Below are positions 7,076-46,999 of a stretch of 57,547 nucleotides of DNA, one piece after another. Source of the DNA: Pseudomonadota bacterium (GTDB taxonomy: Bacteria; Bdellovibrionota_C; UBA2361; OMII01); assembly GCA_027485595.1 (NCBI GenBank), contig JAIXQT010000132.1, positions 1-57,547 on the forward strand. Reading direction: 5' to 3'. Below the pieces are notes generated by a model. It was given only the letters and a program-made list of their open reading frames with translations. It searched no databases and had not been told where the DNA came from. The translations under genes and the position numbers were made by a program. Each line of letters opens with the position of its first letter. The stretch's first letter is position 1.

Positions 7076-7999
7076 ATGACTTCATTCGCGGATCGACTTC
7101 AAGCATCAATTCTTTCCTCGCAGAGCGCGCTTGTCGCAGGATGCGACCCCGTACTTGAGAAGCTACCTGCCTTCTTGCTCGACGAGGCGCAACGAACGAC
7201 GAAGAGTGATAGTGAGTTCGTTGAAAGGGCGCTCTCTCGATTTGGCGAGATATTTCTCTCAGCGGTTACGGGAAAGGTCGCCGCCATCAAACCGAACATC
7301 GCCTTCTTCGAACAGTATGGATTGCCCGGATTACACGCGTTCAAACGTCTCTGTGATTCTATTCGAGTGGCGCGCGTGCCGCTTATTATTGACGCGAAGC
7401 GCGGGGATATCGGTTCAACGGCCGCTGCTTACAGCGCCGCGTTTATCAGCGGGGTAACGATTCGTGGTTCTCGACACGTCGCGTTTGAGTGTGATGCTCT
7501 CACGATCAATCCGTTCCTTGGCTTCGACACGCTAGAGCCCTTCGTCTCTGATTGTGAAGAGTACGGCAAAGGTCTTTTTATCCTCCTACAAACCTCAAAT
7601 CCTGGAGCGAAGGATATTCAGGGATTAGAGAGCGAAGGGAAAACGGTGAGTGGTCACGTGGCTGAGTGGCTCGCCGCAAACGCCTCCCGCCTCGAAGGGG
7701 AGTGTGGGTTCTCCGGTTTAGGAGCGGTTGTTGGCGCCTCATATCCTGAGGAAGCCCGAGCCCTCAGAGCGGCACTTCCCTCAACGTTCTTTTTGATGCC
7801 CGGTTTTGGTGCGCAAGGGGCTGGAGCGGATGACGCGACAGCGGGATTCGCAGAGCGTAACGGTTCTCGAGGTGGCGCGCTTGTAAACGTATCGCGTGGG
7901 TTGCTCGAAGGGAGCTCGGATAGTGAGATATCGCTTGAACAGCTTATCTGGTCCAACGTCGAAAAGTTCAACGGTCAGTTGCGACGCGCGCTGGCGTAA
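7076..7999 (+). CDS. pyrF: orotidine 5-prime-phosphate decarboxylase, type 2
   Basis: It has the DAKRGDIGSTAAAY signature and a C-terminal GxGAQG motif (PGFGAQGAG). The ATG at 7076 is preceded by GGAGGG. The ORF track frame opens at 7004. Confidence 0.9.
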   Translation: MTSFADRLQASILSSQSALVAGCDPVLEKLPAFLLDEAQRTTKSDSEFVERALSRFGEIFLSAVTGKVAAIKPNIAFFEQYGLPGLHAFKRLCDSIRVARVPLIIDAKRGDIGSTAAAYSAAFISGVTIRGSRHVAFECDALTINPFLGFDTLEPFVSDCEEYGKGLFILLQTSNPGAKDIQGLESEGKTVSGHVAEWLAANASRLEGECGFSGLGAVVGASYPEEARALRAALPSTFFLMPGFGAQGAGADDATAGFAERNGSRGGALVNVSRGLLEGSSDSEISLEQLIWSNVEKFNGQLRRALA

Positions 8000-8056
8000 C
8001 CTTCGCTACTCCCCACCATACTAGTGGCTCCGGTAGCATGAGGCCGTGAGGAACTC

Positions 8057-8243
8057 TATCAGGGTGGTGAAAAATGATTTCCTGTTGCGCATTTCGATGG
8101 TTTGGCTCCAACCTCGTTGGAGCCAACGAAAAAATCCTCAACGTATCTTCGTGGATACGCCTCCGGTTTTTTCGTCGTCTCCGCCCCGTTTCGCCGAAAC
8201 CCTCACAATGCTCACGACGGAACCATTTTTCACCACCCTGCTA
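8057..8243. mobile_element. MITE-like TA-flanked inverted-repeat element, copy A (long form, 187 bp)
   Basis: The ends read TA|TCAGGGTGGTGAAAAATGATTTCC ... GGAACCATTTTTCACCACCCTGC|TA. The same sequence recurs at 13836, 17557, 19669, 25556 and 28163. The short ORFs predicted inside it (8046..8279 and others) are artefacts of the repeat. Confidence 0.7.
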
Positions 8244-8349
8244 TACGTATCAGCGGGTTGCGCAGGATTTGGCCGGTAGTCGCGAGGCCGCGATGATCCA
8301 GTAGTGGTGAAGCAGGAATAAGAACCTCGAAAGGGGTACTATCTCCCCT

Positions 8350-10050: not shown

Positions 10051-12144
10051 ATGGGTATTCTTCCTCCTGGCTCCACAAAAGCCGCACCACCTTCATCTCT
10101 AGACGCACCGGTAGGCTCTCTCGTTCAGTACGATGACGACGGAGGCATCCTGCTCGGAGTTATAACCGGCGCGAAGCGGGATAAGTTCACCGTGCTCAAT
10201 GTGAGAGGTCGAGAGGTTGAGCTCGCTCGCCCACGTCTCTACCGATTGCCAAGTGGAACGAGCGTCTCCGGCGCAAGTGTGAGCGCGAAGACTGAAGCGC
10301 TCAACGGTATCTCCAAAAACATTGAGCGTGAAGCGTCGGACCTCAATGTTGAGGAGCTGTGGTCGTTCGTGCACGAGGAGTGCCGAATCTATACAGTGAC
10401 CGAGTTATGTCAAAACTATTTTGGCTCTGACACCCCCGAAAAACATGCTGGACTGCGCATCGCCCTGATCAAGGAGAGGGTGCACTTTAAGCGAGACAAG
10501 GATGGCTTTGAGCCACGTTCAGCCCACGTGGTAAGCGAACTTCGAATTGCCGAAGAGGCAAAAAAACGAAAGGTAACCGCGCGCGAGTCTACCGTTGCCT
10601 GTGTTGTTCAACGCTCCAAGGATCCCGCTGCTGTGATTCCTCACGAGTTAGAGGAGAATTTCGCTCTTATGGGTGAGGTCGCCGCTGGTGTTGCGCACAC
10701 CGACCAATCCCGCCAGAAGGAGGGGAAGGAGCTCACGCATCTTTGTGCTCAGGCGCTTAAACTTTCAGAGAACGCTCCGATCGAAAAGCAAGCCTTCGAC
10801 GTCCTGCTCAAGAGTGGATACTTCACGAAGGATTCAAATCTATCCTTTATTCGTCACGATATTCCAGCGCGCTACTCTCGGGAAGCTCTTGAGGAGGCCG
10901 AAACGTTCGTAGTTCCTTCGACGCTCGCCGACTTTCCTGAGGAGGAGCGGCGCTTGCGGGCAGATTTTACGAGGAAGCACACCTTCACCATCGATGATAT
11001 CTCAACCCAGGACATGGATGACGCCATCTCGATGGAGCGGACCCCTGATGGATACGAGTTGGGGATTCACATCACGGATGTGGCGTGGGCGCTTGCTCCG
11101 GAAAGCGCGCTCGATAGGGAGGCTCGTCGTCGCGCCACCTCGTTGTATTGTGCGGATCAGACTGTAAATATGTTGCCGCGTATCCTGTCGGATATGAAGT
11201 TAAGCCTCCGACAGGGGGAGGTGCGGCCGTCCATCTCAGTTGTTGCCCAGCTCTCGGAACACTTTGAGATCCGTGAATGGACGGTGACCCCCTCTTTTAT
11301 CCGTGTCGCGCAGCGGTACACCTATGATGATGTCGACCTCCTGTTAGAGCATGAGGACGAGACCCTCATGCGGGTCTACCACGCCGCGACCGCGTGCGAG
11401 GAGGAACGTATACGCAAGGGCGCGGTCAGGGTACATCGGCGCGAGGTCGTTCCTTTTGTGGAGGATGATGGATCTATTCGCCTCTTGGAGATAGATGAGG
11501 AGAGCCCCGCTCGTTCGCTTGTCGCCGAGTTGATGGTGCTCGCGAACTCGCTCATGGCGCAGTTTGCGGTACAGCATAACCTCCCCGTTATTTTTCGAGG
11601 CCAGGAGCGGCCCGATGAGAACGCTCGTCAGGCGTTAGTCGATGTCCCGGAGGGGCCAGCCAAGGATTTCACCGCCCGAACAAAACTCAAGAAATCAACT
11701 ATGTCGTTTGAGCCGCACTATCACGCTGGACTTGGACTCGACGCGTACATCCAAGCGACATCGCCGATTAGAAGGTACTTGGATCTGTGTCACCAGCGGC
11801 AGTTTCTCTCGTTTTTTAAGCGCCAACAGCCGTGGATGTCGAAGTCTGAGTTCGAGCCAGTAGCATCGGAGGTTGAGGTTCACCTCAACGCCGCTAATCT
11901 GGCAAGTCGGGAGACCAAACGGTATTGGCTGCTTCGGTACCTTGAGCAGCGCGGTCGGGGCTCTGTCATTACAGGAACCGTTGTGCGTCTCGACACAAAG
12001 TCCCCATTAGTCGAGCTTGATGAGATCTACATCACAGTATTTGTCAAAACGACCAGGCCTGTTCGCATGGGAGAGCAGATCTCGATGAAGGTGGTTACTG
12101 TCGATCCTCACGGGGACTACGTTCGATTAGAGGCTGTGGCGTAA
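10051..12144 (+). CDS. RNase II/RNase R-family 3-prime to 5-prime exoribonuclease (RNB domain)
   Basis: It has the RNB catalytic motifs FTIDDISTQDMDDAIS and ATSPIRRYLDLCHQRQ, plus a C-terminal S1-like segment. Length is 697 aa. Confidence 0.85.
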   Translation: MGILPPGSTKAAPPSSLDAPVGSLVQYDDDGGILLGVITGAKRDKFTVLNVRGREVELARPRLYRLPSGTSVSGASVSAKTEALNGISKNIEREASDLNVEELWSFVHEECRIYTVTELCQNYFGSDTPEKHAGLRIALIKERVHFKRDKDGFEPRSAHVVSELRIAEEAKKRKVTARESTVACVVQRSKDPAAVIPHELEENFALMGEVAAGVAHTDQSRQKEGKELTHLCAQALKLSENAPIEKQAFDVLLKSGYFTKDSNLSFIRHDIPARYSREALEEAETFVVPSTLADFPEEERRLRADFTRKHTFTIDDISTQDMDDAISMERTPDGYELGIHITDVAWALAPESALDREARRRATSLYCADQTVNMLPRILSDMKLSLRQGEVRPSISVVAQLSEHFEIREWTVTPSFIRVAQRYTYDDVDLLLEHEDETLMRVYHAATACEEERIRKGAVRVHRREVVPFVEDDGSIRLLEIDEESPARSLVAELMVLANSLMAQFAVQHNLPVIFRGQERPDENARQALVDVPEGPAKDFTARTKLKKSTMSFEPHYHAGLGLDAYIQATSPIRRYLDLCHQRQFLSFFKRQQPWMSKSEFEPVASEVEVHLNAANLASRETKRYWLLRYLEQRGRGSVITGTVVRLDTKSPLVELDEIYITVFVKTTRPVRMGEQISMKVVTVDPHGDYVRLEAVA

Positions 12145-13509: not shown

Positions 13510-13835
13510 CGTGGTGTGCTCTACCGATCTTGCCCACTTCGGGATCGTTCACCGAACAAAAACGCTTTTTGTCGCTACCGCTCCTCGCTTGCTTCATCTG
13601 ACGCAACCAAGGAGCGGTATTGGATTCCTTCTACCCGTATAGAGCTGTGGTCTTATGTTATGACCAGCTCCTAACCATTTGTGTCTTTGAGCGATCGGTT
13701 TAGTTCAAAAAAGACGAGATGTTGGGTGGTTACTGGGCTTAAAGAGGTCTCATCTGTGAACCCGTGGAACCTCAGGGCGCAAAAAAGGAGAGCCCCGGGC
13801 CCTCCTCATATCAGCATTAATCAAGACGTTAGCCC

Positions 13836-14011
13836 TGCCAGGATGGTGAATAATGATTTCCTGTTACGCATTCCGGTAATGCGACTGCACCTTCGTTGAA
13901 GCCGCCACAATATCCTCAACGTATCTGGGTGGATACGCCCCGTCGTCTCCGCGTTGTTTCGTTAAAATACCCGAAATGCTCACGACAGAACCTTTGTTCA
14001 CCAGTGTGTTA
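13836..14011. mobile_element. MITE-like element, copy B (diverged long form)
   Basis: CCAGGATGGTGAATAATGATTTCCTGTTACGC ... ATCCTCAACGTATCTGGGTGGATACGCC ... AGAACCTTTGTTCACCAGTGTGT|TA aligns along its whole length with copy A. Confidence 0.65.
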
Positions 14012-14209
14012 GTGAATCGCCACTTCGCCAGGCAGTTCTTCCTCCGAATCGGTGCACTCGACCTCTTCGCCGTTAAGCTCTTTGCAAAGGTCCGATATCA
14101 TCTCGAAGGCTTTGGCGAGAGAGTTCATCTCGTCGCAGGTAATTTCAAGCATCTCGAAAGCTAACTCCTCGTCGGTCAGTTCTGGCACATCCTTTCTCTC
14201 TTTTGCCAT
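14009..14209 (-). CDS. small acidic hypothetical protein (66 aa)
   Basis: MAKERKDVPELTDEELAFEMLEITCDEMNSL...PGEVAIH. The ATG at 14209 is preceded by AGGAGAG. The TAA stop (14011-14009) is the terminal TA plus one base of MITE copy B. Confidence 0.45.
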   Translation of the reverse strand: MAKERKDVPELTDEELAFEMLEITCDEMNSLAKAFEMISDLCKELNGEEVECTDSEEELPGEVAIH

Positions 14210-17480: not shown

Positions 17481-17556
17481 CGGCAAGGGGCTATGGCTCT
17501 GGGAGGATGAGGATCTCATCCCCCTCTCTCCATCGAAGGCACAGTCATGCCAGTGC

Positions 17557-17593
17557 GATGCTCGGTAGGGAAGCGTTTTTCACCACCCTGCTA
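17557..17593. repeat. solo right end of the MITE-like element (copy D)
   Basis: GATGCTCGGTAGGGAAGCGTTTTTCACCACCCTGC|TA matches the right arm of copy A. Confidence 0.7.
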
Positions 17594-18133
17594 GGGCTTC
17601 ACAGCGCGAATCGCTAGGATTCGTCCCTCATTGTCTTGGTAATCGGTGCCAGTAAGCACTGATTCGTCCGAATCGAAGTGGATGCGGGTGTTTAAGATAT
17701 CCGATCCATCGGTGTCTTTCCATGAGAGCCACATGCCAACGCGCTCTTTATCCATGTACATCGGTCGAAAGGTAAGAGTTTGGCCGTTTGGTAGTCTGAA
17801 GCTCTCCTTCTTCTTTAAAGAGATCTCCTCTTCTTTGCGTGATATCAAATGAAATGTTGAAAATGGGAGGAGGTTTAATTGAGGTTTGAGATCGGCGATG
17901 GCTTCTTCCACAGAGGTCGTCTGTGTCGTGTCGGTGGATGATTGCCGCGGTCCTGTCGCCTGAATGGTCCGAACGACCACCTTCACCTTTGAATGTTCAC
18001 ACGAATCGTCGGCACCGGCCGAGAGGGGGAAAAACCCAAGGACCCCGAGGCTACAAACAGCGACAAGTCGCTTCCAGAATTGAGCTCTCGGTGTGGTCCG
18101 GTACGTCATATCGTCTCTATTTGGCTGTTCCAA
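17591..18133 (-). CDS. secreted hypothetical protein, last gene of the ECF sigma operon
   Basis: 180 aa with a signal peptide (LVAVCSLGVLGFFPLSAGA). It overlaps the anti-sigma gene by 17 nt. Its TAG stop is the terminal CTA of repeat D. Confidence 0.5.
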   Translation of the reverse strand: MEQPNRDDMTYRTTPRAQFWKRLVAVCSLGVLGFFPLSAGADDSCEHSKVKVVVRTIQATGPRQSSTDTTQTTSVEEAIADLKPQLNLLPFSTFHLISRKEEEISLKKKESFRLPNGQTLTFRPMYMDKERVGMWLSWKDTDGSDILNTRIHFDSDESVLTGTDYQDNEGRILAIRAVKP

Positions 18134-18836: not shown

Positions 18837-19553
18837 CTAACGCGCTGTCGCTGGACGCCCTGTTTTTTGAGCAACCGAAGTCCCCAGCTGCTCCTCCTCA
18901 ACACCATGCGCTTGAGCTGGCGCAAATTCCCCGAGAGCTTTCTGTAGAGCTTTCCGAGCGTAGAACAGTCGACTCATAACCGTTCCCTTTGGAGCCCCGA
19001 TCGCTTGAGCGATCTCCTCGTAGTCGAGACCATCAACCTCTCGCAACATGATCACCGCTCGATGCTCCTCGGAGAGTTCTCCAAGCACCTCTTGAATCTT
19101 GCGCCCCAGCTCCTTCCGCGCAAGAGCATCATGAGGACCTTCAACATTCTGGAGATGATCGGCGACACCTGCTCCTGGTGCCTCCCGTGTTCCATCGTGG
19201 CCTGCCGCTCTGTTGACGCTCGTGTGCTCCTTATATTCAAGGTGAGTGCCACCACGTCGTCCTGCCTTGCGCCGTATGTCGATCGCCATGTTGAAGCATA
19301 TGCGATAGAGCCACGTATAAAAGGAGCTTTGTCCTTTGAATTGTCCCAATGATAAGAATGCCTTAACAAAGGTTTCTTGAACAACGTCCTCCGCATCCTC
19401 TCGAGTTTTGACAATGTCCAGGGCGGTCGTGAGGAGGCGCCCCTGATATCGCTCCACGAGGGCGCGGTAGGCCTCCTTGTCGCCAGCAAGCGTCATTCGA
19501 ACCAGGTCGTTGTCGTCACGGGCCGTTAGATCGGCCTTTACGGGGGTGCTCAT
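18837..19553 (-). CDS. RNA polymerase ECF-type sigma-70 factor
   Basis: Region 2 is DAEDVVQETFVKAFLSLGQFKG...FYTWLYRICFNMAIDIRR. Region 4 is HRAVIMLREVDGLDYEEIAQAIGAPKGTVMSRLFYARKAL. The ORF is open to a TTG at 19640, and the ATG at 19553 is more plausible. Confidence 0.85.
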   Translation of the reverse strand: MSTPVKADLTARDDNDLVRMTLAGDKEAYRALVERYQGRLLTTALDIVKTREDAEDVVQETFVKAFLSLGQFKGQSSFYTWLYRICFNMAIDIRRKAGRRGGTHLEYKEHTSVNRAAGHDGTREAPGAGVADHLQNVEGPHDALARKELGRKIQEVLGELSEEHRAVIMLREVDGLDYEEIAQAIGAPKGTVMSRLFYARKALQKALGEFAPAQAHGVEEEQLGTSVAQKTGRPATAR

Positions 19554-19668
19554 AGGGTTAACGGTGAGGTCTGTCACAAGGGCTCTCGTGTAGGATACCC
19601 GCCTGGACGACCGTCGACCCAGGACACTACCTTGAATCAAGACAGAATCATAGGAACTTGCCTTGGTC

Positions 19669-20456: not shown

Positions 20457-20618
20457 CGTGAGCGTGCTCGTGCACGTAAACGTGAACGTACCCGAAAAAG
20501 CAGCTTTTTCCGCTCCCGCCCGAAATAGAGCAGTATTCTCGATTATGGCTCTTCGCAGAATCGAGTGGGTAAGACTGGTGTCTCCGGACGTGAACATGCT
20601 CGTGAACGTCGGCATAAT
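20457..20618 (+). repeat. two arrays of phased CGTG hexamers
   Basis: 20457-20492 reads CGTGag CGTGct CGTGca CGTAaa CGTGaa CGTAcc. 20589-20618 reads CGTGaa CATGct CGTGaa CGTCgg CATAat. Related arrays occur at 2695-2724 and, on the minus strand, at 24367-24384. Confidence 0.7.
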
Positions 20619-21107
20619 ACCGAGTCCTACCCACTCGATTCCGCGATGACCCTGCATCTTTTTGATGAAACAGAGACGATGGTTTGAGAAAATATGCAGC
20701 CGACCTCAAGCATACTTCCATGTGTTGCAAGCGGGCTCGTCAGGAAGTAACACCGCCATATGACCACGATCACACCTTTTCCCTGTTATGACGAAGAGTG
20801 GGTCCTCACCTATATCAAAAAAAAAAGTTTCTCATTCCCTAGTCAGCACCCCTGAGCCGCTTTAGCTTGGTTTCTAAGGCACGCCGTTCAATTCGCCTCG
20901 TACGGATAGTATTCCGCGGAGGTGAATGAAACGGTCTCAAGGTTCCAACAGGTAATGCTCTCGCCGTGAGAGCTGGTTTTTAGTTGGGACTGCTGGCGGA
21001 CGATGTAGCTAAGGTTTTGTGGGCGAATTTCCGATTGGATGGAAGTTCGCCCACTCCCCCGACCTTTCGTGCACGCCCCAGCCAACGGTTAGTAGGGGGA
21101 GCGAAGG

Positions 21108-24062
21108 GTGTTGGATATGCAACGAAGGTTTTATCGAAGTGGAGGTCGCCCCCTGAATATCTCTGGGGCGGTGTCCTATCCGCGCGAGAGAGCTCGAGTG
21201 TGGGCTGTGTCTCGCGTGATTCAAGGATTGATCGCACTCTCGGCCATGGGCTTGAGCGCTCAATCGCACGCGCAAACCTCATCCCTACCGGTTTTTCCAG
21301 GGGCGGTGGGGTTCGGGACCACGACTGTGGCGGGGTCAGGGCGAGGCACGGTGCCCGCGAAGACAACGGTGATAAAGGTTACTAACCTTAACGATTCGGG
21401 AACGGGATCTCTTCGAGCGTGCTTAACAGCAAGTGGGCCACGTACCTGCGTATTTGAAGTTGGGGGATATATCAATCTCCTTACGAAGATCACGATTAAA
21501 ACTCCGAACGTCTCGGTATTTGGGCAAACGGCGCCATATCCGGGAATTCAGGTTCGGGATGGGAGCATCGTCGTCCAAGCTGACGATGTATTGATACAAC
21601 ACATCAGCTCTCGACCAGGCGATAGAAACCTCCCGACAGATGGAGGCACCGGTCTTAAGGCGAGTGAACGAGACGCGTTTGGAGTCTGGGGTACTTCTTC
21701 CTCTGATCCCGTTGAGCGTGTGGTGTTCGATCACGTGTCCGCAACGTGGGGTATGGATGAGTCCATCTCAACCTATACGGGTGTGAATGGGACGGCTGAT
21801 GGCACAACGCCCGTCCGAAACATCACTATCTCCAATTCGATTATCGCTGAGGGGCTCAACAATTCGAATCACGGGGATACGGAAGGGAAGCACTCTATGT
21901 TCTCCCTGCTCGGTTCGAACACGAAAAACATAACGTACTATCGAAACCTCGTATCGAGCTCGAACGGACGTCACATTCGAATGAAGATGAACTCTGATGT
22001 CGAGTTCCTCAACAACTATGTCTACAATTTTGCGAACTCCGCGACCAATGGCTACAACCAGTGGAACATGGACTACAGTTCCGGAGCTACCGGTAACCGT
22101 ATTAATTTCATGAGTAACTACTACCAGCGAGGACCGACGACGGCGGATACAACATCGCCGGTGTTCTTCTATAGTAGCTCCACGCCGCTGGCATCTCGTG
22201 TCTATGTGTCGCGCAATATCTCAACGAATACGCGGCCCAGTGATTCGGGAAGTGAATGGCTCATAGCGAACGCGAACGGAAAAGGACTGCCATCTTCAAT
22301 GCAGGCTACCTCGCCAGCGTTTCCGTTATCGAACGCAGCCGCAAGCCTGGTTTCGCCCACGGCTCTGCTGAGTACCGTGACCCCTCAAGTGGGGGCACGC
22401 TTCTGGAACAGGTATCCGCACGACAGTCGTATTATTAACGAGGTCGTTACTAACACCGGAAAGCATAAGGACTGTACTACCACGAGAACGTGTTGCGTCA
22501 CGGGTACTGGAGGGAGTGGATATTGTCCGTCTCCAGGGAGAATCCTTATCGATGGTTCGACCAAGGACACTACAAAACCTATCGACGCGTGGTCGACGCT
22601 AACGGCGACGACACGCTCGTTTGTCATACCGGCTAATCCAACGGCGATAGCCGCCAACGGATACACCAATCTGGAGAACTATATATTCTCCTTCACCTCT
22701 GACACTGGAGCGGGAGGCGCTACCCCAACGCCAACGCAGGTGCCGGTGACATCGACGCCGACGTCGACGTCGACGCATACGCCCACTCCAACGTGGACGC
22801 CGACCTGGACACCCACGGGGACTCCCACGTGGACAGCAACGTCGACTTTCACCCCTGCGCCCACAGCAACGTGGACTCCTGTGCCTGCGACGGCCACACC
22901 TACCGCGACCTTCACCGCGGTGCCGACTGTCCCGACGGCAACAGCTGTTCCTACGCAAACGACACAAAAGCTCTTCAAGGTGCTTAAGGTTACCTCCTTG
23001 GCGGATAGTGGGGCGGGCACCTTGCGAGATTGCGTTGTGCAATCGTACCCACGAGTGTGTGTCTTTGAGGTATCTGGGCGGATCTCGTTGGCATCCGATC
23101 TTTTGGTGACGCAACCCGACCTGATTGTCGCGGGACAAACAGCTCCGTCTCCGGGAGTCATGATCACGAACGGGGGCTTTAACATTCAGAGCCACGACGT
23201 CCGGATTGAGCATCTCGCGTTACGGAGTGGTGACGAGAGCGCTGGAAGCGACCCCGCCGTACGCCGATCGGTGACGGTGCAGGGGCTTGTGGCCTACAAC
23301 GTCAAACTCAGGAACCTCTCGATGTCGTGGGGTGTTGATTCGAACATGACAACGATCGGTCCTGTTGAGAACGTGACGGTCCAAGACAGCATCATAGCGG
23401 AGGCTCTATGGCGCTCGATTCATCCACTGGGGGCGCGTTCGAACGGCGTGCTCGTAGGGGAAAAGGGTCGGGGCGTTGTATTTGTGGGAAATCTCCTCGC
23501 TGCGAACGTCGACCGAAATATTCGGTGGAAGTACGATACCCGAGGTGAAATGATCAATAACGTCATCTACGGATGGGGAGGAACCACCAATTGGAACACA
23601 ACCAACATCTCTGACCTTGAGAATAAGGACCTTGGGGTGTACCTCGATGTGATCGGAAACGTCTACCAACCAGGCCCGGCTGGATTGAAGGACGCCTACG
23701 CGGTCTACACTGAGAATACGCCATCAGGGACGCGACTCTTCGTCTTGGATAACATCGCTCCTAAGATATCGAACGTGGAGTCCCAGTATCGGTGGGGGAG
23801 TCGTTTGTTCTCTGGTCCGACACCTATCTCTGCAGCCACCACCCTCAGTTCGGTGGCCGCGAAGGCGGGGACTCGCCCATGGGATCGAAACGTCGACGAC
23901 CTGCGTATTATCTCGGGGGTCAAGGATAAGACGTTGGGCCTCAGAGACAAAGTTGGAACGTGGCCATCATATGCTCGGAACTATCGTGCGGTGAGTGTTG
24001 CTACGGATCCTATGACCGAGAGTGAACTCAACGCGGCGTTAGCGCTGTTCGAGACGAAGTAA
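21108..24062 (+). CDS. secreted protein with two pectate-lyase-like (COG3866-type, right-handed beta-helix) domains joined by a Thr/Pro linker
   Basis: It has a signal peptide (LIALSAMGLSAQSHAQ). Domain 1 is FPGAVGFGTTTVAGSGRG...VTNLNDSGTGSLRACL...PRTCVFEVGGYINL...VFGQTAPYPGIQV. Domain 2 repeats this pattern as KVTSLADSGAGTLRDCV...PRVCVFEVSGRISL...VAGQTAPSPGVMI. The start may be Met4 (21117). Confidence 0.8.
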   Translation: MLDMQRRFYRSGGRPLNISGAVSYPRERARVWAVSRVIQGLIALSAMGLSAQSHAQTSSLPVFPGAVGFGTTTVAGSGRGTVPAKTTVIKVTNLNDSGTGSLRACLTASGPRTCVFEVGGYINLLTKITIKTPNVSVFGQTAPYPGIQVRDGSIVVQADDVLIQHISSRPGDRNLPTDGGTGLKASERDAFGVWGTSSSDPVERVVFDHVSATWGMDESISTYTGVNGTADGTTPVRNITISNSIIAEGLNNSNHGDTEGKHSMFSLLGSNTKNITYYRNLVSSSNGRHIRMKMNSDVEFLNNYVYNFANSATNGYNQWNMDYSSGATGNRINFMSNYYQRGPTTADTTSPVFFYSSSTPLASRVYVSRNISTNTRPSDSGSEWLIANANGKGLPSSMQATSPAFPLSNAAASLVSPTALLSTVTPQVGARFWNRYPHDSRIINEVVTNTGKHKDCTTTRTCCVTGTGGSGYCPSPGRILIDGSTKDTTKPIDAWSTLTATTRSFVIPANPTAIAANGYTNLENYIFSFTSDTGAGGATPTPTQVPVTSTPTSTSTHTPTPTWTPTWTPTGTPTWTATSTFTPAPTATWTPVPATATPTATFTAVPTVPTATAVPTQTTQKLFKVLKVTSLADSGAGTLRDCVVQSYPRVCVFEVSGRISLASDLLVTQPDLIVAGQTAPSPGVMITNGGFNIQSHDVRIEHLALRSGDESAGSDPAVRRSVTVQGLVAYNVKLRNLSMSWGVDSNMTTIGPVENVTVQDSIIAEALWRSIHPLGARSNGVLVGEKGRGVVFVGNLLAANVDRNIRWKYDTRGEMINNVIYGWGGTTNWNTTNISDLENKDLGVYLDVIGNVYQPGPAGLKDAYAVYTENTPSGTRLFVLDNIAPKISNVESQYRWGSRLFSGPTPISAATTLSSVAAKAGTRPWDRNVDDLRIISGVKDKTLGLRDKVGTWPSYARNYRAVSVATDPMTESELNAALALFETK
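22719..22965 (+). repeat. low-complexity Thr/Pro-rich coding linker (imperfect ACN-CCN repeats)
   Basis: It encodes ATPTPTQVPVTSTPTSTSTHTPTPTWTPTWTPTGTPTWTATSTFTPAPTATWTPVPATATPTATFTAVPTVPTATAVPTQT between the two lyase-like domains. Confidence 0.85.
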
Positions 24063-25252: not shown

Positions 25253-25558
25253 ATGGAGAATCAACAGGTGTCATCATCACAATCTGAAAGCATTCAAAAC
25301 ATACAATGGGCGGGTCGATCGATCTCATCGAAAGTAGAAGGCCTGTCCCCCGATCTTTTTTTGACCGGGGCCGCCGTATCTATAGGGCTGTCGCTGCTCC
25401 TACGCGGTACCGGGCGACACCACGATGCGCAGTTCGTGGGGCAGTGGGCCCCGACACTGTTGTTGCTCGGGCTCTACACTCGAGAAGGACGTGGTCTTCG
25501 AACGGTGGCAGCACGACTACAGTCGGGTGCATCGAGCGAAGAGCGAGGGATGCATTAG
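25253..25558 (+). CDS. small hypothetical membrane protein (101 aa)
   Basis: The ATG at 25253 is preceded by GGAGGAG. It has two hydrophobic segments (LFLTGAAVSIGLSLLL, WAPTLLLLGLY). Its TAG stop (25556-25558) is the TA flank plus the first base of MITE fragment E. Confidence 0.45.
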   Translation: MENQQVSSSQSESIQNIQWAGRSISSKVEGLSPDLFLTGAAVSIGLSLLLRGTGRHHDAQFVGQWAPTLLLLGLYTREGRGLRTVAARLQSGASSEERGMH

Positions 25559-26814: not shown

Positions 26815-26871
26815 GGGAAGCGAGGCAAAACCTACCCGAAGCGAGAAAGGGTAGGTTTTGCCTCGCTTCCC
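26815..26871. repeat. perfect 23-bp-stem hairpin/palindrome
   Basis: GGGAAGCGAGGCAAAACCTACCC gaagcgagaaa GGGTAGGTTTTGCCTCGCTTCCC. It has no flanking U-tract. It lies 9-80 nt upstream of the AI-2E gene, depending on the true start. A 17-nt arm copy is at 46668-46684. Confidence 0.85.
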
Positions 26872-28021: not shown

Positions 28022-28162
28022 AGTGCCCTCCTTAGTCGGTACGGGCCTTACCTCACCACTCTTGTCATAAATACGAAGTGATCGAGGTCATCGTGCGGCA
28101 GGGGCTCGCGTGTCGACTTTTCAGAGCGGCGCAGTATGCACACACACTTTCTGAAGGGGCAG

Positions 28163-28272
28163 TAGCAGGGTGGTGAGAAATGGTTCCGTCTTGAGCATTT
28201 TGAGGGTTTCGGCGAAACGAGGCGGAGACCATCGAAAGGCGCAACAGGAAATCATTTTTCACCACCCTGCTA
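28163..28272. mobile_element. MITE-like element, copy F (110-bp short form, inverted relative to copy A)
   Basis: TA|GCAGGGTGGTGAGAAATGGTTCC...GGAAATCATTTTTCACCACCCTGC|TA. It equals copy A minus an internal segment of about 76 bp. The terminal CTA is the czcA stop codon on the minus strand. Confidence 0.75.
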
Positions 28273-31200
28273 GCGCAACTCTCCCGACGTGGGCAATCGA
28301 CCCCTACGAGCCAACGACGCCATAACCACCGGAAGAACCAGAAGGGTCAGCGCAGTCGCCGAGATGATTCCTCCGATAACCACCGTTGCGAGGGGGCGTT
28401 GCACCTCGCTCCCAGTGCCATGAGAGATCGCCATAGGAACAAAGCCGAGCGAGGCGACGAGCGCAGTCATGAGTACCGGTCGTAATCGTGTAACAGCCCC
28501 CTCGGTGATCGCTTTGAGAGGTGACTCCCCCTGCATCAGGAGCTGCCGAGTAAAGGAAACAAGAACTAATCCGTTGAGCACAGCGACACCTGAGAGCGCG
28601 ATGAACCCAACTGCGGCTGAAATGGAGAACGGAATGCCTCGAGCCCATAAGGCTATGGCGCCACCCGAGAGCGCGAAAGGGATACCAGAGAATACGAGGA
28701 GGGAGTACGTGAGAGATCGAAAGGTGATGACGATAAGTCCAAAGACGCTCACTAAAACGATCGGTACTACTATGAGGAGTCGATGTTTAGCGTTGATCAG
28801 GTTCTCATATTGGCCACCCCACCCGAGCCAGTACCCAGGGGGAAGTTGAATTGAGGTCGCGATTTTAGCCTGCGCCTCCTCGACAAAGGAGCCGAGGTCT
28901 CGATTGCGCACGTTGGCAGTGATAACGATCCGTCGCTTGCCGTTCTCGCGACTGATCTGATTGGGGCCCTGGGTAACGGTGATATCAGCCACTGTTCCAA
29001 GGGGAATAAATGACATCGTTGGCCCCTCAGGCTTGAGCTCAGTTCGAGCGTACTCCATCGAGTGGTAGTGTGGTGCGATATCTGTAGGGATCGGAATAGG
29101 GAGGCTTGAGAGCGCGAGGATGTCGTTTCGCACATTCTCTCCGAGCCGCACCACAATCGGAAAGTTCCGATCGCCCTGGTAGAATCTACTTACCTCTCGC
29201 CCCGCGTATGCGGTTTCCACCACCTCTTGTACATCTTGGCTACTCAAGCCGAGGCGGGCAAGCTTCTCCCGATGTGGCTTCACCTCGACAAGTGGGAGCC
29301 CGGTCACTTGCTCTACCTTCACATCGGAGCTTCCTGGAATCGACGAAAGGATGCTCTCAACTTTCTCTCCGTTGGCGAGGAGCACATCGGTATCATCCCC
29401 GAAAAGCTTAACGGCGACGTCACTACGAACTCCCGCGAGCAGTTCGTTAAACCGCATCTGAATCGGCTGTGTAAACTCATAATTATTGCCGGGAACCTGA
29501 AGCGCGATCTTTTCGAACCTTTCAACGATATCTTGTTTGCTCAAAGAGGGATTCGGCCATTCTGAGCGTGGCTTTAAAACTATATAGCCGTCAGCCACAC
29601 TGGGGGGCATCGGATCGGTGGCTATCTCTGCTGTTCCGATCTTAGCGAATACGTGGTGTACCTCCGGCTCTTTTCGTAGCGCGTCTTCAAGCTGGTACTG
29701 CATCTGAATAGATTGAGTGAGAGATGTTCCGGGAATGCGAAGAGCATGCATCGTGATATCCCCCTCATCGAGTGAGGGAATAAACTCTGAGCCGAGGCGA
29801 AGGAAGACACCGAGCGAGAGAAGAAGGACCGCCGCTGCGCTTACGAACACCGCACGCGGAATCTCAACGAGTCGAGCCAGAAGGGAACGATACCAATTTT
29901 GAATGCGTTCGGTGCGGGATTCGTGCACCGAGGTAGCGTCTCCTCTCACAAATATGGCAACGGCGGCCGGCACAAAAGTAAGTGAGAGGATGAACGCTCC
30001 AACGAGCGCCAGGAGGACTGTGAGCGCCATGGGATGGTACATCTTTCCCTCAATGCCACTGAGGGCCAGAATCGGAACGTACACAACCATAATGATCAGC
30101 TCGCCGAACATCGTCGCTTGGCGCACCTCTGAGGATGCCTTGAATACGACATCCAGACGCTCCTCAGTGGAGAGCGCTCTTTGAAGGCCGCGGCGAGCCT
30201 CCCCGAGCCTCTTAATGCAATTTTCAACGAGGATGACGGCTCCGTCGACGATAAGTCCAAAGTCCAGGGCTCCCAAACTCATGAGATTTGCGCTCAACTT
30301 GCTCTGCACCATGCCGGTAATCGTAAAGAGCATCGTCAGGGGAATAACGAGAGCGGTGACGAGCGCCGCCCGGATGTTTCCGAGCGCGAAGAAGAGGACC
30401 GCTACGACAAGGATCGCTCCCTCGGTGAGGTTTCGCTCAACTGTGGCGATGGTTGCTTGCACAAGATCAGCGCGATTATACACGGTACGCAGCCGAATCC
30501 CCTGAGGAAGGGATCTCTGAACCTCCTCGATCTTTGCGGTTACCTTCTGAGATACCGCCAGGCCGTTCTCACCGATGAGCATGAATACCGTTCCAAGGAC
30601 CACCTCCCGACCGTCTTGGGTCGCGGCGCCTGCTCGAAGCTCAGAGCCCTCAGTGACCATAGCTACCTGTCCGATTCGGACCGGGGTGCCCTCGTGAACA
30701 CTCACGACAAGCTCATCGAGCTCGTGTATGTGGTGCACCTGAGCGGGAACGCGCACGAGAAACTGCTCGCCATTCTTCTCGAAAAATCCAGCGCCAACAT
30801 TCGCGTTGTTCCGTGCTAGGGCAATCTGTATGTCATTCAGCGTCAGCCCATAGGCGCGAAGTTTCTCCAGATCCGGCGTGACAACGATCTGCTTTGACTC
30901 CCCGCCGATCGCGTTCACCTCGACGACCCCGGGGATAGTCATGAGTTGAGGTCGAACGACCCAATCCTGAATCTCCCGCAGCTCTTGAAGATTATGATGG
31001 ACAGGGGCGTTGGGCTCCTCCTCGACGACAAACATGTAGATCTCGCCGAGGCCGGTCGCGATCGGACCCATGGTCGGACTGATTCCGGCGGGCAATCGAT
31101 CCTTGGACTCTTGTAGTCGCTGCGCGATGAGCTGACGGGCGAAGTAAATGTCGGTGCCATCCTTGAAAACTACCGTGACCTGCGAGAGCCCATATCGAGA

Positions 31201-31455
31201 GAGTGACCGCGTGTATTCCAGTGCTGGTAAGCCAGCGAGAAGGAGCTCGATAGGATTGGTGACCTGCCGCTCAACTTCAAATGGGGAGTACCCACTTGCC
31301 GCTGTGTTGATTTGCACCTGAACATTCGTGATATCTGGTACCGCGTCGATAACCAGGTGTCTGGCAGACGCTAGTCCAAGGATCGCGATAGCGAGTGTTG
31401 CGCCAAGGACCCAGAAGCGGTGCTTGATAGAGGTCTTCAGGATAAAATTGAACAT
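28270..31455 (-). CDS. czcA: heavy-metal efflux RND transporter, CzcA/CusA family
   Basis: 1061 aa with 12-TM RND topology. The TM4 motif ALDFGLIVDGAVILVENC is typical of HME-RND pumps. It is the last gene of a CBA operon. Confidence 0.93.
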   Translation of the reverse strand: MFNFILKTSIKHRFWVLGATLAIAILGLASARHLVIDAVPDITNVQVQINTAASGYSPFEVERQVTNPIELLLAGLPALEYTRSLSRYGLSQVTVVFKDGTDIYFARQLIAQRLQESKDRLPAGISPTMGPIATGLGEIYMFVVEEEPNAPVHHNLQELREIQDWVVRPQLMTIPGVVEVNAIGGESKQIVVTPDLEKLRAYGLTLNDIQIALARNNANVGAGFFEKNGEQFLVRVPAQVHHIHELDELVVSVHEGTPVRIGQVAMVTEGSELRAGAATQDGREVVLGTVFMLIGENGLAVSQKVTAKIEEVQRSLPQGIRLRTVYNRADLVQATIATVERNLTEGAILVVAVLFFALGNIRAALVTALVIPLTMLFTITGMVQSKLSANLMSLGALDFGLIVDGAVILVENCIKRLGEARRGLQRALSTEERLDVVFKASSEVRQATMFGELIIMVVYVPILALSGIEGKMYHPMALTVLLALVGAFILSLTFVPAAVAIFVRGDATSVHESRTERIQNWYRSLLARLVEIPRAVFVSAAAVLLLSLGVFLRLGSEFIPSLDEGDITMHALRIPGTSLTQSIQMQYQLEDALRKEPEVHHVFAKIGTAEIATDPMPPSVADGYIVLKPRSEWPNPSLSKQDIVERFEKIALQVPGNNYEFTQPIQMRFNELLAGVRSDVAVKLFGDDTDVLLANGEKVESILSSIPGSSDVKVEQVTGLPLVEVKPHREKLARLGLSSQDVQEVVETAYAGREVSRFYQGDRNFPIVVRLGENVRNDILALSSLPIPIPTDIAPHYHSMEYARTELKPEGPTMSFIPLGTVADITVTQGPNQISRENGKRRIVITANVRNRDLGSFVEEAQAKIATSIQLPPGYWLGWGGQYENLINAKHRLLIVVPIVLVSVFGLIVITFRSLTYSLLVFSGIPFALSGGAIALWARGIPFSISAAVGFIALSGVAVLNGLVLVSFTRQLLMQGESPLKAITEGAVTRLRPVLMTALVASLGFVPMAISHGTGSEVQRPLATVVIGGIISATALTLLVLPVVMASLARRGRLPTSGELR

Positions 31456-46620: not shown

Positions 46621-46722
46621 AGGGGACGACCTTACGTTGTCTCAGCCCTGCCCACAATGACCCCTAAGGAAGCGAGGCAAAACCCCTCCCTGCTGCGAAA
46701 GCGTATCTTGGGTCGCTCTTCA

Positions 46723-46794
46723 ATTTTCAGCACGTGAAAAAATCCTCATTGTATCTTGGCGGATACACCAGAGGTTTTTTCACGCACTGAAAAT
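46723..46794. repeat. stand-alone copy (G) of the inner palindromic module of the MITE long form
   Basis: ATTTTCAGCACGTGAAAAAATCCTCATTGTATCttggcgGATACACCAGAGGTTTTTTCACGCACTGAAAAT is a long imperfect hairpin. Its core is homologous to 8126-8175 of copy A. Confidence 0.65.
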
Positions 46795-46999
46795 CGAATA
46801 TCAACCCAATCTCCACTTTCTCGCTACGGGTTGGTTTTGTCTCGATTTCCTAAACTTCTGTTTGAGCGGTCGAGACTCCACCACATCATCCGGAACCAGC
46901 GTATGGCCCCAGTCGCCTCCTATGGGGTGCTGCACTGCAACCTTTAACGCCTCAACATCATCAATAGTAGTACACAATGACCTATGCCAAAGGCTCAAT

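Follow-up and report, generated by a model that had tools for sequence, protein, structure and literature searches.

Why would the ends of one short repeat coincide, to the nucleotide, with the stop codons of four unrelated genes? The question arises from contig JAIXQT010000132.1 (assembly GCA_027485595.1, Pseudomonadota bacterium), which we analyzed over its full 57,547 nt, hereafter referred to as the window. The repeat is a non-coding MITE (miniature inverted-repeat transposable element), that is, a non-autonomous DNA transposon, and its copies have the structure that defines such elements. An initial annotation, made from the sequence alone, had described element ends as flush with the stops of the four genes listed below, and all four junctions proved to be exact. 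We consider the coincidence to be explained, with a probability of roughly 0.85, by a MITE that duplicates the target YTAR (C/T-T-A-A/G) and is neutral when it lands on a stop codon; the ends fall on stops because YTAR reads TAR on both strands.

28270-31455, minus strand: czcA, a CusA/CzcA heavy-metal efflux pump of the resistance-nodulation-division type (Pfam ACR_tran; TIGR00914, 1425.6 bits)
17591-18109, minus strand: a conserved protein of 172 amino acids (180 amino acids as 17591-18133), with 58 homologs
14009-14209, minus strand: a conserved acidic protein of 66 amino acids, with 75 homologs
25253-25558, plus strand: a small membrane protein of 101 amino acids, with an ortholog in the metagenome locus L077

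All four of these open reading frames (ORFs) are real genes. At the czcA junction, ...GAG TTG CGC TAG (stop at 28270-28272) is followed directly by CAGGGTGGTG, the end of the element being at 28269. Also on the minus strand, the 172-amino-acid gene reads ...AAG CCC TAG into CAGGGTGGTG and the acidic ORF reads ...ATT CAC TAA into CACACTGGTG, while the small membrane ORF, on the plus strand, reads ...ATG CAT TAG into CAGGGTGGTG.

The element and its duplicated target

The full-length MITE measures 181 bp and has the ends CAGGGTGGTG...CACCACCCTG, with variants spanning 104-182 bp. Its terminal inverted repeats are imperfect, with arms of 47-51 nt that are 78-79% complementary, the outermost 10 nt being perfect. 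It has no coding capacity, as no conserved ORF lies inside it and only short spurious ORFs cross it, and its G+C content is about 50%, that of the window being 54% over 57.5 kb.

To follow the family beyond the window, the MITE end sequence was scanned against one genome per species, which gave at least 76 listed loci. Loci fetched from our scans are numbered with the prefix L (L001, L077 and others), and all counts of copies and termini reported here are among the matches listed. Most of the loci come from one metagenome-assembled genome (MAG), JBDLRS01, labelled Pseudomonadota; the remainder belong to MAGs that bear the label delta proteobacterium or Proteobacteria, or are chance matches in unrelated genomes. 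Twenty complete copies were found among the listed loci, almost all of them 181 bp long and 97-99% identical to their own consensus (JBDLRS01). Because these copies are so similar, we conclude that the family has been recently active. The copies in the window are 83-93% identical to the family consensus.

The flanks of the complete copies define the target. In 17 of the 20 copies, which lie in related MAGs, identical direct 4-mers stand on both sides, and these are CTAG, CTAA or TTAG. YTAR is found at 75 of the 105 pattern-matched termini (CTAG 48, CTAA 14, TTAG 13; TTAA never), and most of the other termini are chance matches in unrelated genomes. The MITE duplicates this 4-bp target, which lies wholly outside the element. 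The initial annotation had assigned the TAG or TAA to the terminus of the element itself; it belongs instead to the duplicated YTAR outside CAGGGTGGTG...CACCACCCTG. Because a YTAR site also reads YTAR on the opposite strand, the three bases before either end, on the strand that enters the element, are always TAG or TAA. Beyond YTAR, the flanks show no more than a weak preference for G/C/C (positions -7 to -5).

The window holds six copies or remnants of the MITE (E1-E6), listed here with the target duplicates of the czcA copy:

8060-8240, plus strand: E1, a full-length MITE of 181 bp, 92.8% identical to the consensus, with direct CTAT at 8056-8059 and 8241-8244
13839-14008, plus strand: E2, a diverged MITE, 83% identical to the consensus; the TAA stop of the acidic ORF lies in the flanking TTAG, 14009-14012
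19672 to about 19900, plus strand: E3, a degenerate MITE upstream of the ECF sigma gene, with an uncertain right boundary and no stop involved
17558-17590: E4, a right-end remnant; the TAG stop of the 172-amino-acid gene lies in the flanking CTAG, 17591-17594
25559 to about 25605, plus strand: E5, a left-end remnant; the TAG stop of the small membrane ORF lies in the flanking TTAG, 25555-25558
28166-28269, reverse orientation relative to E1: E6, a short MITE of 104 bp with exact CAGGGTGGTG ends
28270-28273: gene-proximal target duplicate of E6, CTAG, whose bases 28270-28272 form the TAG stop of czcA (minus strand)
28162-28165: distal target duplicate of E6, GTAG, one substitution from CTAG

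The short copy at czcA, E6, derives from the 181-bp element by an internal deletion that removed the central part, its arms matching 8170-8243 (92%) and 8056-8101 (96%). Where the two duplicates of a copy differ, as at E6 (CTAG proximal, GTAG distal) and in L001 (CTAG proximal, CGAG distal), the intact one is the stop. E1 touches no stop codon: as the initial annotation had noted, pyrF points at this element without reaching it, its stop at 7999 lying 60 bp before the first base of the copy. At E4, the whole 110-bp gap of 17481-17590 is probably a decayed short copy. On the left side of E2 we observed a second TTAG (13829-13832) followed by six extra bases, CCCTGC, before the first base of the element; these resemble an element end and could stem from an indel or be left over from an earlier event.

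Stop codons in element-free relatives

If the stops preceded the insertions, relatives that lack the element should end at the same codon, and the initial annotation had pointed to such relatives as the place to look for the native stop. An exact-protein look-up of czcA returned no record, the called start probably being different, and orthologous czcA DNA was obtained by a metagenome scan. The resulting locus, L077, has no element; its CzcA is 90% identical at the amino-acid level, and synteny extends over window positions 33873-22791. There, czcA ends in ...GCC TCC TAG, and this stop falls at the codon where the window has ...TTG CGC TAG; the intergenic length on the czcA side equals that of the window once the element is subtracted. 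L077 also carries the element-free ortholog of the small membrane ORF (10511-10816, minus strand), which ends in ...EMH*, its last codons being ATG CAC TAA, again at the same codon.

For the 172-amino-acid protein, element-free loci end in ...AAG CCT TAG (L097) or ...AAA CCT TAA (L098 and L100), and the gap to the convergent ABC-2 gene is 17 bp in L097 and 7 bp in L098, compared to 110 bp in the window. Empty sites were thus seen in three relatives, L077, L097 and L098. The acidic protein has the C-terminus ...(I/L/V)H* in 49 of the first 50 of its 75 homologs listed. Together, these comparisons indicate that all four stops are native and stand at their original codon; the outcome that the initial annotation had named as refuting, an original stop elsewhere, was seen in none of the four cases.

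In its genomic setting, czcA sits in a CzcCBA-like cluster, and the 172-amino-acid gene closes an extracytoplasmic function (ECF) sigma cluster whose sigma-70 ECF gene lies at 18837-19640. Across its 58 homologs, the 172-amino-acid family alternates at the C-terminus between ...KP* and forms that are 1-7 residues longer and have Q or E at the stop position. These Q/E extensions would fit point changes of TAG to CAG or GAG that are independent of the element. A further copy of the MITE, 184 bp long, was found in a distantly related czc locus (L080 7506-7689; CzcA 64% identical), where the left TTAG is the stop of the upstream ORF (...GAA GAG ATT TAG) and the right flank is CTAG.

Frequency of insertions at stops and what could account for it

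To ask how often the family sits on stop codons, we used 21 complete insertions, from the related MAGs plus the window. Genes were called by greedy choice of the longest ORFs, with a minimum length of 60, 90 or 120 codons, empty sites were rebuilt, and every CTAG, CTAA or TTAG site in the same loci as the insertions was classified to give the null. Eleven of the 21 insertions coincide exactly with the stop codon of an ORF that has 90 codons or more; of the rest, nine fall between genes and one falls inside a called ORF. The 11 comprise nine that were scored automatically, plus E6 and the L001 copy, for which the rebuilt site had used the mutated distal duplicate.

Stops make up 5-7% of all other YTAR sites and 12-24% of the YTAR sites outside called genes, and the excess over the non-coding YTAR null has p = 6e-5 to 7e-4. 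Restricting the count to non-disruptive complete insertions gives 11 of 20 on stops versus a null of 15.7% (p = 6e-5). Counted per terminus over the listed loci, 18 of 74 fall on stops against an expected 8.2% (p = 2e-5). For the window by itself, the figure is four of six copies (p = 0.007-0.03, with a null of 16-24% per insertion). CTAG is strongly depleted in these genomes (0.28 observed/expected), and because it is rare, stops form a sizeable share of the targets that can be tolerated. Only one classifiable insertion lies between divergent genes. At L038 (6518-6698), both ends of one copy are flush with the stops of convergent long ORFs, of 487 and at least 433 codons; before the insertion, these ORFs would have overlapped in a single shared CTAG.

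We propose the following course of events. A DDE-type transposase, acting in trans, would cut YTAR with a 4-nt stagger, and repair would duplicate the four target bases. Where the target is a stop codon that follows a sense codon ending in a pyrimidine, the gene-proximal duplicate would keep the stop in place. With the protein unchanged, the insertion would be near-neutral and would persist, and YTAR insertions inside genes or promoters would be removed by selection. We infer that the enrichment results from target specificity together with purifying selection against insertions in genes and promoters, that is, from survivorship and not from active homing. This retains one half of an explanation given in the initial annotation, namely that an insertion at a stop leaves the protein unchanged and so survives; the other half, in which TA plus a G of the element rebuilds TAG, is replaced by the 4-bp YTAR.

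Several points weigh against this account. Two copies in the window have non-canonical or imperfect duplications (CTAT/CTAT and GTAG/CTAG). Our searches, described below, found no autonomous partner, and the transposase and the family it would belong to are deduced from the target. The gene calls behind the null are crude and the sample is only 21 complete insertions. Finally, avoidance of coding sequence does not by itself account for the 2- to 4-fold excess over non-coding YTAR, which calls for something more: counter-selection in 5′ regions, an extended target preference or exaptation. An extended preference, such as the G/C/C bias at -7 to -5, or some exaptation could also be contributing. 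The more far-reaching view that stop codons are the principal safe harbor of the family, with a transposase that homes to stop contexts before selection or hairpins that were widely co-opted as structures of the 3′ untranslated region (UTR) setting mRNA ends, we judge unlikely.

The initial annotation also raised selection of the long hairpin at gene 3′ ends as a terminator or transcript stabilizer. As exaptation, the hairpin, with its A6-hairpin-T6 core, would be kept there because it terminates transcription or protects mRNA 3′ ends. Reviews regard such roles as possible for MITEs (PMC10969869, PMC2229807), and the idea would account for the excess just described. The element RNA is predicted to fold very stably, the short copy 28166-28269 into one long hairpin (-49.3 kcal/mol, z = -7.9) and the full copy 8060-8240 at -81.6 kcal/mol (z = -10), and the latter bears a central A6-hairpin-T6 module at 8128-8173 that is terminator-like, with T-runs on both strands. 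Stable folding is, however, expected of any MITE with long inverted repeats. Among stop-adjoining ends, L-type and R-type number 13 and 6 versus a background of 38:29, which is no clear bias in orientation. In at least three cases (L006, L027 and L056), the next co-directional gene follows the stop-adjoining copy at a distance of 31-48 bp, which probably places the copy inside an operon, where a terminator would be polar. The copy at czcA lacks the central core, the sole terminator-like module of the MITE, and two of the four stop-adjoining copies in the window are decayed remnants. A terminator or stabilizer function is thus neither needed nor supported by the data, and we regard it as quite unlikely to be what keeps the elements at stops. 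The related statement that the elements define the 3′ UTRs of these genes holds by position only.

Two further explanations can be dealt with briefly. We attach very little credence to the idea that insertions truncated longer ORFs and so created new stops: TAR does precede every end, so any in-frame ORF would terminate there, and some homologs of the 172-amino-acid protein do run 1-7 residues past ...KP, but the stop is at the same codon in element-free orthologs in three cases, the fourth family ends in ...H* (49 of the first 50 listed), many element-free homologs of the 172-amino-acid protein likewise end in ...KP*, and Q or E at the stop position of the extended variants fits a point change of TAG to CAG or GAG and not an insertion. 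An IS630/mariner-type element that duplicates only TA, its own terminal G completing TA+G = TAG, would suit most ends in the window, which read TAG, then CAGGG...CCCTG, then CTA and are compatible with TA plus a G or C of the element, but this 2-bp duplication was rejected and is highly improbable, as complete copies elsewhere have direct and not inverted flanks (CTAA...CTAA, TTAG...TTAG), so that flank positions 1 and 4 agree across the two sides and vary between copies while the element ends stay constant, and E1 has CTAT on both sides.

The transposase, known systems and a second family

We searched for the autonomous element that could move the MITE. No autonomous element with MITE ends was found in the window, in the at least 76 listed loci, in plasmid records or in viral contigs: plasmid records contained no BLAST match to the element, the scan of viral contigs gave no partner, and a loose search for end pairs over all loci gave chance pairs only, such as one next to dnaA in L029. 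The unpaired ends seen in L009, L049, L054 and L057 belong to truncated copies beside ordinary genes.

One candidate parent was rejected. The unit at L068 5121-6641 (1,521 bp) has MITE ends, a CTAG duplication and a 405-amino-acid DDE transposase. This transposase belongs to the IS4 family (NF033592; DUF4372 and DDE_Tnp_1) and is 55-62% identical to those of ISGme2, ISPosp4 and an insertion sequence (IS) of Magnetococcus. The ends of these three ISs have the form CACTAGTGTCCGG, and such ends were found inside L068, where they delimit a nested IS of 1,331 bp with the ends CACTAGTGTCCCG and the 9-bp duplication GTTAAAACT. A 9-bp duplication is typical of the IS4 family (PMC2266710). Because the nested unit has its own ends and its own 9-bp duplication, we interpret the L068 unit as an unrelated IS4-family IS inside a copy of the MITE.

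The closest parallel among known elements is IS5, which inserts at Py-T-A-Pu (CTAG 15, CTAA 3 and TTAG 3 of 24 sites), the insertions discussed in that study being mostly in upstream regulatory positions and not on stop codons (PMC5493358). IS5 shares with the MITE a 4-bp duplication and the same ranking of targets, which for the MITE are CTAG 48, CTAA 14 and TTAG 13. From this target, we infer mobilization of the MITE by a DDE transposase with IS5-like specificity. The MITE differs from IS5 in being 181 bp long and non-coding, without a transposase gene and with no autonomous partner found in our searches. Its ends, CAGGGTGGTGAAAAATG, may resemble the IS5 end (shared GGTG..GAA.AA). Tourist MITEs, which are mobilized by the PIF/Harbinger transposases of eukaryotes, relatives of those of IS5, duplicate a short T-A-rich target, TAA/TTA. 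They are likewise non-autonomous and have a stop-triplet target, but their duplication is 3 bp and their hosts are eukaryotic. We know of no report that Tourist MITEs sit on stop codons.

Among bacterial repeats, Correia/NEMIS, RUP and ERIC are like the MITE in being small (<200-300 bp), non-coding and multi-copy, with inverted repeats and target duplications. They are mostly intergenic, give hairpin transcripts and in some cases affect mRNA 3′ ends (PMC2229807, PMC10969869). For the most part, these families bear TA or duplicate it, and they are A+T-rich (PMC2229807), whereas the MITE described here duplicates YTAR and has about 50% G+C. The IS701 family shares a target duplication of exactly 4 bp, but its end signature, ---YACT-Y--YR, is unlike CAGGGTGGTG (PMC2266710). 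An Rfam search of the whole window matched no family, and the MITE thus has no similarity to any Rfam family; a tRNA search of the window found none.

The window and L077 also contain a second MITE-like family, at window positions 46668-46850 and 26815-26871 and at about 10400-10470 in L077, with IS5-like ends GGAAGCGAGGCAAAACC... The copy at 46668-46850 is flanked by (C)TAA at 46664-46667 and 46851-46853. The center of this copy (46736-46781) and the A6-hairpin-T6 module of the first family (8128-8173) are 83% identical, so that two MITE families with different ends have one internal module in common. An arms-only version of the second family, 57 bp long with a perfect 23-nt hairpin, lies just upstream of an AI-2E transporter gene.

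Three other features of the window were observed. The ORFs of at least 200 codons (n = 36) end in TAG (17), TAA (11) or TGA (8), so that TAG is the commonest stop; TAG is usually the rarest stop in bacteria, and its excess in the window is thus unusual. Direct repeats with a 12-nt period (GACGTCGACGCC-like) occupy 22731-22879 within the ORF 21108-24062 (984 amino acids), implying a short peptide repeat. An inverted repeat at 20547-20652 has 30-nt arms that are 87% complementary around a 46-nt spacer and is unrelated to the MITE.

In the literature that we searched, we found no description of a MITE or IS whose target duplication doubles as stop codons. The MITE family is new and the mechanism is not: the stop-codon effect follows directly, and as an ordinary consequence, from a known kind of target preference. 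What it offers is a clean natural example of a transposon whose target sequence renders its insertions harmless. A target of this palindromic class, with a stop triplet on both strands, allows the element to lie flush with genes, even with a convergent pair that shares one CTAG, and no protein is altered. For annotation, a repeat found flush with a stop codon should be read with caution, as the stop belongs to the target duplication and is not borne by the element. For the organisms themselves, a poorly known freshwater lineage, copies of this MITE are common sequences at the 3′ flanks of genes.

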